The notes: generated by a model not told the origin, from the letters alone. A stretch of DNA of 64,000 nucleotides from a virus (IMGVR_UViG_3300044305_003112:9273-73272); one strand, 5' to 3'. Shown: positions 56,101 to 57,360, counted from the stretch's first letter. Translations and numbers: made by a program.

Positions 56101-57360
56101 ATGTTTTGGTTAGTTGAAAATAAAGTTCAATTTGAGCAGTTTTCTAATGCTAATTATAAAGAAGTTTTTGTTGAAGTAATTCCTTATAATAGTAAAATAC
56201 ATCCTGTTCAAAATAATGTGTGTGCTGTCTACATTAGACCGTTAGTAACAACTAAAGGATTTATAATACCCATTTCCCATAGTGAAACAACTAATATTAA
56301 TATAGACGGTATTATATTGTTATTATCAAAGATAAATACCATATATGTTAGAGATAAAAAAGAATTTTTACATTATTTTCCACTAAAAAATCTCTTTGAC
56401 ATAACACTCAATTCACCTCCGTATATACAAGAATTTACACAAACTCATGAAATATTTATGAGGAGATATCCTAATAAAAAAGATATTAATAGAATAATCC
56501 CTATTGTAAAACATTATGAGTATTGTGAAAATATATTTAATAATTTAAAAGAAAAAATAAATGAGCCAATCAACGAATTCTACAACAACAAATGCTCGGT
56601 GGTTTTCAACGCCGTGGAGAGAAGTGGATTACGAATTGATAGATCACAATTCGAACAGAATTTTCATAGTATCGATTCCGACTACACATACACACAATAC
56701 AACTTCAAAACCCTCACAAAAAGACCATCAAATAAATTTAAAGGAGTAAATTATGCAGCACTTAACAAAGACAACAATTCTAGAAGAAGTTTTAACACTC
56801 GTAATGATATCCTTTGCGAGCTTGATATTGGCGCTTATCATCCTACTCTTTTGGGTAAGCTCATTCATTGGAAGTGGGATAAAAAAGATATTCATCAATC
56901 CTTTGCTGACATGTATGGAGTGGATTATCAAAAAGCAAAAGAACTGACATTTAAACAATTATATGGAGGAATATTTAAACAGTATAAAGACTTAGAGTTT
57001 TTTAAAAGAGTCCAAATATATACTGATGAGATGTGGTATAAATTTCAAAATGAAGGTTTTATAGAATGTCCTATTTCAAATCATCGATTTGAAAAAGATA
57101 AATTAGATAATATGAAGCCCCAAAAACTTTTAAATTATTTACTACAAAATTTGGAGACATCAGTTAATGTTTGTATAATGTATGACATATTTAGATTATT
57201 AAAAAATAAAAAAACTAAATTAATTTTATATACTTATGATTCATTTTTATTCGATGTGTGTAAAGAAGAAAAAGAAGTTTTAATAAAAATAAAAGAATTA
57301 TTTAAACAGTATAAATTACAAATAAAAATAAGTTATGGAAACACCTACGATTTTAGATAA
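56101..57360 (+). CDS. polA: compact family-A DNA polymerase (419 aa; no 5'-3' exonuclease, degenerate proofreading domain)
   Basis: TKRPSN, motif A ELDIGAYHP, motif B KAKELTFKQLYGG, QNLET, motif C YTYDSFLFD. Confidence 0.85.
   Translation: MFWLVENKVQFEQFSNANYKEVFVEVIPYNSKIHPVQNNVCAVYIRPLVTTKGFIIPISHSETTNINIDGIILLLSKINTIYVRDKKEFLHYFPLKNLFDITLNSPPYIQEFTQTHEIFMRRYPNKKDINRIIPIVKHYEYCENIFNNLKEKINEPINEFYNNKCSVVFNAVERSGLRIDRSQFEQNFHSIDSDYTYTQYNFKTLTKRPSNKFKGVNYAALNKDNNSRRSFNTRNDILCELDIGAYHPTLLGKLIHWKWDKKDIHQSFADMYGVDYQKAKELTFKQLYGGIFKQYKDLEFFKRVQIYTDEMWYKFQNEGFIECPISNHRFEKDKLDNMKPQKLLNYLLQNLETSVNVCIMYDIFRLLKNKKTKLILYTYDSFLFDVCKEEKEVLIKIKELFKQYKLQIKISYGNTYDFR
56561..56749 (+). CDS. candidate overprinted ORF A (+1 frame inside polA), S/T-rich, 62 aa
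   Basis: TAA immediately before the ATG, A-rich upstream region, coincides with a burst of C-ending codons in polA. Confidence 0.4.
   Translation: MSQSTNSTTTNARWFSTPWREVDYELIDHNSNRIFIVSIPTTHTHNTTSKPSQKDHQINLKE
56753..56947 (+). CDS. candidate overprinted ORF B (+1 frame inside polA), single-TM protein, 64 aa
   Basis: AAGGAG-taaatt-ATG; hydrophobic VLTLVMISFASLILALIILLFWVSSFIG; basic C-terminus; polA avoids TTA/ATA/GTA here. Confidence 0.45.
   Translation: MQHLTKTTILEEVLTLVMISFASLILALIILLFWVSSFIGSGIKKIFINPLLTCMEWIIKKQKN

Follow-up and report, generated by a model that had tools for sequence, protein, structure and literature searches.

Two small genes are very probably overprinted head to tail across the catalytic region of a phage divPolA1-type DNA polymerase gene

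Within the 64,000-nucleotide stretch of viral DNA analyzed here (IMGVR_UViG_3300044305_003112:9273-73272, hereafter the window), the gene for a divPolA1-type minimal family A DNA polymerase raises the question of why its +1 reading frame stays open across part of the catalytic region. A first-pass annotation had noted two back-to-back +1 open reading frames (ORFs) of 62 and 64 codons, here called ORF A and ORF B, parted only by TAA-ATT and accompanied by an abrupt switch in codon usage, and had read them as real dual coding. Their coordinates prove exact in the 419-codon gene, and both lie wholly inside it (56101-57360), on the same strand and in a different frame, which is the geometry of overprinting. 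From sequence comparisons across a large family of relatives we conclude that the two ORFs are very probably small genes, arranged head to tail and overprinted on the divPolA1 gene in its +1 frame, and that both are kept by selection on their protein products. The dual-coding interpretation is borne out by open frames conserved in relatives, by conserved starts and stops, by codon footprints that follow the integrity of each ORF and by the absence of both ORFs from the outgroup.

The codon switch is readily seen in the window itself. None of the first 40 polymerase codons ends in C, as against 21 of the 52 codons at 56560-56715, counts that our tally confirms; likewise, TTA and GTA occur once each and ATA not at all in 56560-56949, while the whole gene uses 20 TTA, 22 ATA and 4 GTA codons. 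The local GC content rises from ~0.23 to ~0.37 in the ORF segment. Across the polymerase gene the +1 frame contains 29 stops, just one of which falls between codons 152 and 281. Taken alone, the longest uninterrupted +1 run (65 codons) is unremarkable (p ~0.01, uncorrected, among 285 gene-by-frame tests). None of 5000 synonymous-codon shuffles reaches the length of the 128-codon +1 span with its one internal stop (mean of the null 54, maximum 115), and this span is also the largest among the 57 window genes, the runner-up reaching 77 codons.

Scanning viral contigs with the polymerase returned 80 loci at 63-82% protein identity, all on metagenome contigs and 79 of them usable. Exactly one +1 stop, at the same alignment column, is present in the region in 75 of these 79 relatives, while the ORF translations differ considerably, so that the conservation of the +1 ORFs, which the first-pass annotation had proposed to look for in aligned polymerase relatives, is indeed found. 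Among 45 non-redundant close relatives, ORF A is open in 41 and ORF B is likewise open in 41. Under a null model that resamples codons according to the usage of the respective gene outside the overlap, ~4 stops would be expected in ORF A and ~4-5 in ORF B where none is observed (P ~0.0005-0.02 per sequence). Stop density in the +1 frame is 0.78 per 100 codons in the region versus 8.65 outside it, and the corresponding values for the +2 frame are 15.5 and 14.3. Sequences in which one of the two ORFs is broken show stop counts near the neutral expectation in that ORF, with 3 stops in ORF A alone in L001 and L002 (3.6-4.1 expected) and 5-6 stops in ORF B alone in L039 and L069 (5.9-6.0 expected).

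Recent divergence gives a similar picture. Relatives at 87-97.5% nucleotide identity keep both ORFs, and their overlap is more conserved than the remaining gene. We further compared 24 close pairs of sequences, which are disjoint though not strictly independent, and tallied how often a change that is silent for the polymerase introduces a +1 stop. Outside the region the figure is 86 per 377 sites; ORF A has 0 in 61.7 sites and ORF B 2 in 61.7, with ~14 expected in either ORF and both of the ORF B changes located in multi-hit codons. The amino acid substitution rate of the polymerase in these pairs is equal inside and outside the overlap. The all-pairs synonymous-identity profile, which is near saturation and thus a weak test, displays shallow dips (ratio 0.6-0.8) at alignment columns 140-150, 165-185 and 205-220.

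The open +1 frame could in principle be the side effect of selection on the opposite strand, where the window carries an antisense ORF of 76 codons and where stops in the antisense register are depleted in the region (1.39 versus 8.55 per 100 codons). The relatives argue otherwise: the antisense frame is broken about twice per sequence, at no fewer than 12 different columns, whereas none of the 41 intact sequences has an extra +1 stop. Read antisense, the polymerase codons TTA, CTA and TCA are stops, and their scarcity follows secondarily from the constraint on the +1 frame; we give next to no credence to the antisense frame as the selected one.

The boundaries of both ORFs are also conserved. 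The ATG is kept in 44 of the 45 close relatives at either start and the ORF A stop TAA in all 45, the lone exception at ORF B being a lineage in which that ORF is dead. At the junction, where the end of ORF A and the beginning of ORF B fall on the polymerase residues Gly-Val-Asn-Tyr, the ORF-bearing clade uses an almost fixed set of codons (GGA 43/45, GTA 45/45, AAT 45/45, TAT 44/45). The clade of Flavobacterium phage immuto (hereafter the immuto clade) encodes the same junction residues with mixed codons, namely 12 GTA, 8 GTT, 5 ATA, 4 GTC and 3 GTG for the valine position and 22 AAT and 12 AAC for the asparagine. Summed contig depth peaks at 56731-56851 in several sequencing runs, which probably stems from the near-invariance of this junction among related phages.

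As for the leaders, the A-richness upstream of ORF A stands at the 99th percentile of all other ATGs in the window, which is still within what real gene starts show; it is preserved in the family (mean A 0.64), and the reduced synonymous variation at columns 140-150 coincides with it. The ORF B leader falls within the range of real gene starts as well, and its ATG follows the ORF A stop by 3 nucleotides. Shine-Dalgarno-like motifs, even weak ones, precede only 5 of 58 window genes, whose leaders are A-rich (mean 55% A in the 18 upstream nucleotides), features that would fit initiation of the Bacteroidota type in the host. The AAGGAG-N6-ATG arrangement pointed out before ORF B is therefore present but carries little weight as evidence for initiation, because the phage's own genes do without Shine-Dalgarno sites.

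These boundaries bear on a further explanation, namely that the +1 frames are read but not as independent genes, either by ribosomes that shift frame to give trans-frame polymerase variants or as functionless noise translation. The A-rich run before ORF A could be slippery, and the products, both without homologues and that of ORF A predicted to be disordered, would be compatible with such a reading. However, a +1 stop directly precedes the ATG of ORF A in 37 of the 45 sequences and that of ORF B in all 45, so that a shifted ribosome would have to slip exactly at the start, and the conserved ATGs at both sites are joined by the absence of any 0-frame stop or known +1 shift motif in the window sequence. 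Noise translation, for its part, would leave rare codons unfixed and would not preserve a hydrophobic helix down to ~50% polymerase identity. We consider translation of this kind a very unlikely account of the locus.

The middle base of each +1-frame codon is the third base of a polymerase codon, and codon choice in the polymerase can thus be read as residue choice in the ORFs. Third-position C in the ORF A part amounts to 0.27-0.30 in lineages with the ORF intact and to 0.00-0.02 in those with it broken, while the rest of the gene shows 0.07-0.14. Several polymerase codons that are rare in the background are fixed in the ORF A core, namely ATC (39/41; background 0.03), GTG (30/30; 0.11), TTC (41/41; 0.14), AAC (41/41; 0.27), GCC (34/34; 0.08), CGA (41/41; 0.15) and TCG (38/38; 0.10), and give rise to invariant Trp, Ser, Thr, Pro, Glu and Arg residues in the ORF A product; where ORF A is broken, the common polymerase codons return. 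At two positions the overlapping polymerase residue itself varies, between Val and Met or between Ala and Ser, yet the +1 residue remains Trp or Pro, respectively, in 41 of 41 sequences. Furthermore, changes that are synonymous for the polymerase and nonsynonymous in the +1 frame occur in ORF A at a rate 27% below background across the 24 close pairs. Serine and threonine together make up 26% of the product, which is slightly acidic.

Selection on ORF B takes another form. Third-position A drops to 0.05 across the columns of its 28-residue hydrophobic helix, as compared with ~0.4 elsewhere and 0.38 where ORF B is broken, and T is the base favored there (0.64). In hydropathy, the best 19-residue window of ORF B averages 2.82 (minimum 2.25), while 494 background +1 segments taken from these genes do not exceed 2.24 and the outgroup averages 0.88. 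AlphaFold2 models the product as a single helix with a predicted local distance difference test (pLDDT) score of 86. The helix contains 0.16 charged residues, and the stretch spanning residues 14-42, which is nearly free of charge, is flanked by net charges of +1.2 on the N-terminal and +5.2 on the C-terminal side. According to the positive-inside rule the basic flank of a membrane helix is cytoplasmic, and the tail of ORF B is accordingly predicted to face the cytoplasm. The only invariant cysteine of ORF B, residue 54, is forced by a Met-Tyr pair in the polymerase. The constraint on ORF B bears on composition only, as expected of a membrane anchor. The Ser/Thr-rich nature of ORF A and the hydrophobic nature of ORF B, to which the first-pass annotation had drawn attention, are real but are also the mechanical outcome of C- and T-ending polymerase codons, and they gain evidential value only through the family comparison, in which the codon choices prove to be selected.

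Such a codon pattern might instead serve the polymerase itself, for instance as a cluster of rare codons that slows translation at the thumb-palm boundary to aid folding, with the open +1 frame as a side effect. The avoided common codons, TTA, ATA and GTA, are precisely those that make +1 stops, many of the codons fixed in the ORF A part are rare and C-ending, and reversion to common codons yields +1 stops automatically, so that correlated decay alone cannot separate this possibility from dual coding. Other features do separate them. The helix of ORF B favors T, that is, common codons, and avoids only A, which corresponds to a need for hydrophobic +1 residues rather than to a rare-codon pattern, and its hydropathy surpasses every background segment. 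Starts, stops and the junction are invariant at synonymous sites, the Trp and Pro residues of ORF A are fixed over variable polymerase residues, and the ORF A and ORF B halves have been lost independently; one locus (L171) even keeps the +1 frame open with its polymerase frame broken. A rare-codon function for the polymerase thus strikes us as highly improbable.

How the ORFs are distributed was determined on a set of 122 non-redundant polymerases of the divPolA1 group (<90% identity), which also served for the tree; the distant ORF copies were found with an ORF A profile and then led to an intermediate clade. All 80 polymerases with at least 50% identity to that of the window carry one or more of the ORFs (69 both, 7 only ORF A and 4 only ORF B), and none of the 42 below 50% carries either; in the immuto clade, at 36-39% identity, the homologous stretch holds 6-14 stops. 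Carriers occupy one side of a branch with 99% support, whose sister group is without the ORFs, and the fewest changes on the tree are 4 for ORF A and 8 for ORF B. This distribution is compatible with one origin at the base of a single clade of marine phages followed by scattered, independent losses. No member of the ORF-bearing clade turned up among named phages.

The same breadth of sampling speaks to an alternative that the first-pass annotation had itself raised, in which the segment is a recent import by recombination from a higher-GC relative. The local rise in GC content would suit an import, the ORF A part of the window is closer to L069 than overall identity predicts, and mosaicism within the gene does exist. 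The codon bias, however, is found in 80 non-redundant lineages and not in the window alone, is of a different kind in each half (many third-position Cs over ORF A, few third-position As over ORF B) and vanishes only where the respective ORF is broken; moreover, in this region the window resembles its close relatives more, rather than less, closely. We therefore reject the import hypothesis.

The pair also occurs in variant forms. In a clade at 52-57% identity (L175-L236) ORF A usually ends at a conserved earlier stop, after ~46 codons, and ORF B extends beyond the point at which it stops in the window; ORF B begins at an internal ATG in three lineages, and some lineages have ORF B only (L245 and L241) or ORF A only (L242 and L266). 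A further arrangement concerns the locus L171:208-1393, whose polymerase is 65% identical to that of the window and carries two TAA nonsense codons in its own frame, at codons 120 and 204. There the +1 frame is open for 128 codons and the two ORFs are fused, the ORF A stop having changed from TAA to TCA and the ORF B start from ATG to ACG. The locus may represent a fused ORF in a perhaps dying host gene; resting on a single 1.4 kb contig, it is a lead. More speculatively, and with little confidence on our part, the pair could display the full life cycle of gene birth by overprinting, with a single origin across a catalytic motif, a linked soluble-plus-membrane pair (as hinted by the L171 fusion), the capacity to outlive the host gene (L171 again) and a possible action on the replication machinery at the membrane. 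Three further candidates were set aside: P0139, in which ORF A precedes a different hydrophobic tail, is likely a chimera on a low-coverage 1.5 kb contig where polymerase homology breaks off, and P0136 and P0140 are low-complexity matches.

Several observations weigh against two selected protein-coding genes. Protein language model recognition scores are low for both ORFs, and the AlphaFold2 model of ORF A, at pLDDT 51, is without secondary structure. Residue changes in ORF B are not reduced (substitution rate 0.277 against a background of 0.289). Each ORF is dispensable in several lineages. Finally, a marine metatranscriptome contains a perfect 121-nucleotide contig piece over the ORF A/ORF B junction (56731-56851) and another RNA run has no coverage of the gene, but such contig pieces from RNA libraries show neither transcription nor translation nor start sites. 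Set beside the conserved frames, boundaries and codon footprints, these points leave overprinted genes kept for their products as by far the most probable explanation.

If the ORFs are indeed genes, both would be translated from the polymerase mRNA during the early or middle, replicative phase of infection. Ribosomes would start ORF A at an A-rich leader without a Shine-Dalgarno site, of the phage's own type, and ORF B at its own ATG just past the ORF A stop, either independently or by termination-reinitiation. The ORF B product would insert into the inner membrane of the host, N-terminus out and basic tail in the cytoplasm, and that of ORF A may act as a disordered peptide on some partner through its short conserved motif.

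Database searches returned no free-standing homologue of either ORF. The matches to ORF A are only the same nested ORF, called on contigs with a fragmented polymerase, and ORF B has none; where the polymerase gene is intact, neither has ever been called by annotation. Searches of PHROGs, Pfam and PADLOC gave no above-threshold match for either ORF, and the PADLOC defense profiles gave none at E values up to 1, although small exclusion proteins share no common profile. In the ESM Atlas, ORF A yielded nothing of use, and the hits of ORF B were confined to hypothetical clusters below threshold. The lack of free-standing homologues fits birth in place.

The earlier suggestion that ORF B is a holin or antiholin finds no support: Hol_Tox (PF16935) scores 18.1 bits, short of the 23.3 cut-off, in a match confined to 16 hydrophobic residues, and the neighboring genes serve replication and recombination, with gp32-like and RecA/UvsX-like products and no endolysin or lysis cassette beside the ORFs. 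Nor does the locus match an embedded o-spanin of the Rz1 type, since ORF B has no lipobox and its host gene encodes a polymerase rather than an i-spanin. As regards the role of the pair, we tentatively rank first, because it is dispensable, fast-evolving and probably made with the replication genes, an early accessory membrane function such as superinfection exclusion or modulation of the envelope or host membrane, a role that is possible rather than probable. Membrane anchoring of replication and a part in lysis timing both seem doubtful and clearly less likely than that, and the remaining probability goes to some other role. Short membrane proteins with one or two passes, produced together with early or replication genes, include T4 Imm, an accessory protein of superinfection exclusion, and phi29 p16.7, which anchors replication to the membrane. 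ORF B resembles them in size, predicted topology and presumed timing only, with no similarity of sequence or fold.

The coordinates of the two ORFs, their signals and the host gene are collected in the table.

Table. Positions, in window coordinates, of the two nested ORFs, their signals and features of the host polymerase gene
Feature	Position	Strand	Remarks
ORF A	56561..56749	+	62 codons + TAA, +1 frame; Ser/Thr-rich, predicted disordered product
ORF A conserved core	56597-56665	+	residues 13-35: Q-W-x-S-T-P ... Y-E-L ... N-R-x-F
ORF A leader	56539..56560	+	A-rich, ends in +1 TAA (56558-56560) directly 5' of ATG; 18 nucleotides upstream 72% A, 6% GC
Junction	56743..56754	+	GGA GTA AAT TAT (polymerase G-V-N-Y); ORF A TAA 56747-56749, ATT spacer, ORF B ATG 56753-56755
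ORF B	56753..56947	+	64 codons + TGA, +1 frame; short polar N-terminus, helix, basic tail
ORF B hydrophobic helix	56789-56872	+	residues 13-40; overprinted on polymerase motif A
ORF B basic tail	56873-56944	+	
Antisense ORF	56728..56958	-	76 codons; by-product, no conserved open frame in relatives
Host gene, divPolA1-type minimal family A DNA polymerase	56101..57360	+	419 residues; weak Pfam match and immuto homology
Polymerase motif A	56824-56853	+	inside host gene
Polymerase motif B	56932-56970	+	inside host gene
Polymerase motif C	57226-57255	+	inside host gene

The host gene lies in an AT-rich window (29% GC) from a large tailed phage of ~160 kb, with every gene on the plus strand. Its product matches Pfam DNA_pol_A weakly (E 0.008) and, over 92% of its length, shares 38% identity with the polymerase annotated as family A in Flavobacterium phage immuto (E 2e-76); solved structures, searched by sequence, gave no match. 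The name divPolA1 was given in 2024 to a second and divergent PolA of immuto-like phages; its thumb is truncated, its exonuclease domain is dead, and it always stands at the head of the same module of single-stranded DNA-binding protein (SSB) and RecA-like genes, the phages that carry it, relatives of the present one, measuring 155-190 kb (Virol J, PMC11348598). Downstream of the window's polymerase follow a 157-residue gene and genes for a gp32-like SSB and RecA/UvsX-like proteins, as in immuto. On the basis of the immuto homology, the minimal size and this conserved downstream replication module, sequence comparison assigns the host gene to divPolA1. The immuto and window polymerases are thus homologous and alike in their minimal size, in having motifs A, B and C and in being followed by SSB and RecA-like genes, whereas the immuto clade is without the nested ORFs, which go unmentioned in the divPolA1 study (PMC11348598). 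Thousands of polymerases related to that of the window were found.

Among known nested genes, the closest parallel in layout is that of the embedded two-component spanin genes, with lambda Rz1 inside Rz (PMC5295617, PMC6139136). There too the gene for a small envelope-associated protein is contained entirely in the +1 frame of another phage gene; it was missed by gene callers and was found through conservation. Rz and Rz1 differ in being lysis partners in a lysis cassette, Rz1 being a lipoprotein with a lipobox, whereas the present locus has a polymerase as host in a replication module, two tandem nested genes, an ORF B that lacks a lipobox and no adjacent lysis genes. In the Microviridae phage phiX174 the replication gene A harbors B and K, and D harbors E, whose product is a small protein that crosses the membrane once. 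The two cases share out-of-frame genes nested in an essential gene, including a replication gene; genomes of the phiX174 type, however, span 5-6 kb, where compression is the usual argument, and the lysis role of E finds no support here. The ample space in a phage of ~160 kb points to gene birth rather than economy.

Phages are known to nest genes out of frame, but few of the cases in large double-stranded DNA phages are well supported, gene callers tend to miss them, and the present pair would add two unannotated protein families to a group of phages common in marine metagenomes. The usual site of overprinting is a loosely constrained part of the older gene, and its extension across a catalytic motif is unusual. 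The family moreover amounts to a natural experiment, with a single apparent origin, ORF-less outgroups, lineages in which one ORF or the other has been knocked out independently, forms that are truncated, extended or fused, and a dead-looking host gene in one case, and is suited to measuring how a new and an old gene share codons. It also suggests that in hosts without Shine-Dalgarno initiation any ATG behind an A-rich stretch may be tried, which could favor this route of gene birth.

A few minor observations concern other overlaps in the window. The 157-codon gene 3' of the polymerase overlaps the polymerase end by 26 nucleotides (57335-57360), and both this overlap and the gene's size recur in every relative inspected. 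At window:23234-24391, on the minus strand, a 385-codon antisense ORF lies over the gene at 23298-24779; with a shuffle-null mean of 238 open codons (p 0.03) it looks like a by-product of composition. Finally, one antisense frame at window:11577-12674 has an open run of 101 codons, compared with a null mean of 46 (p ~0.007, uncorrected).

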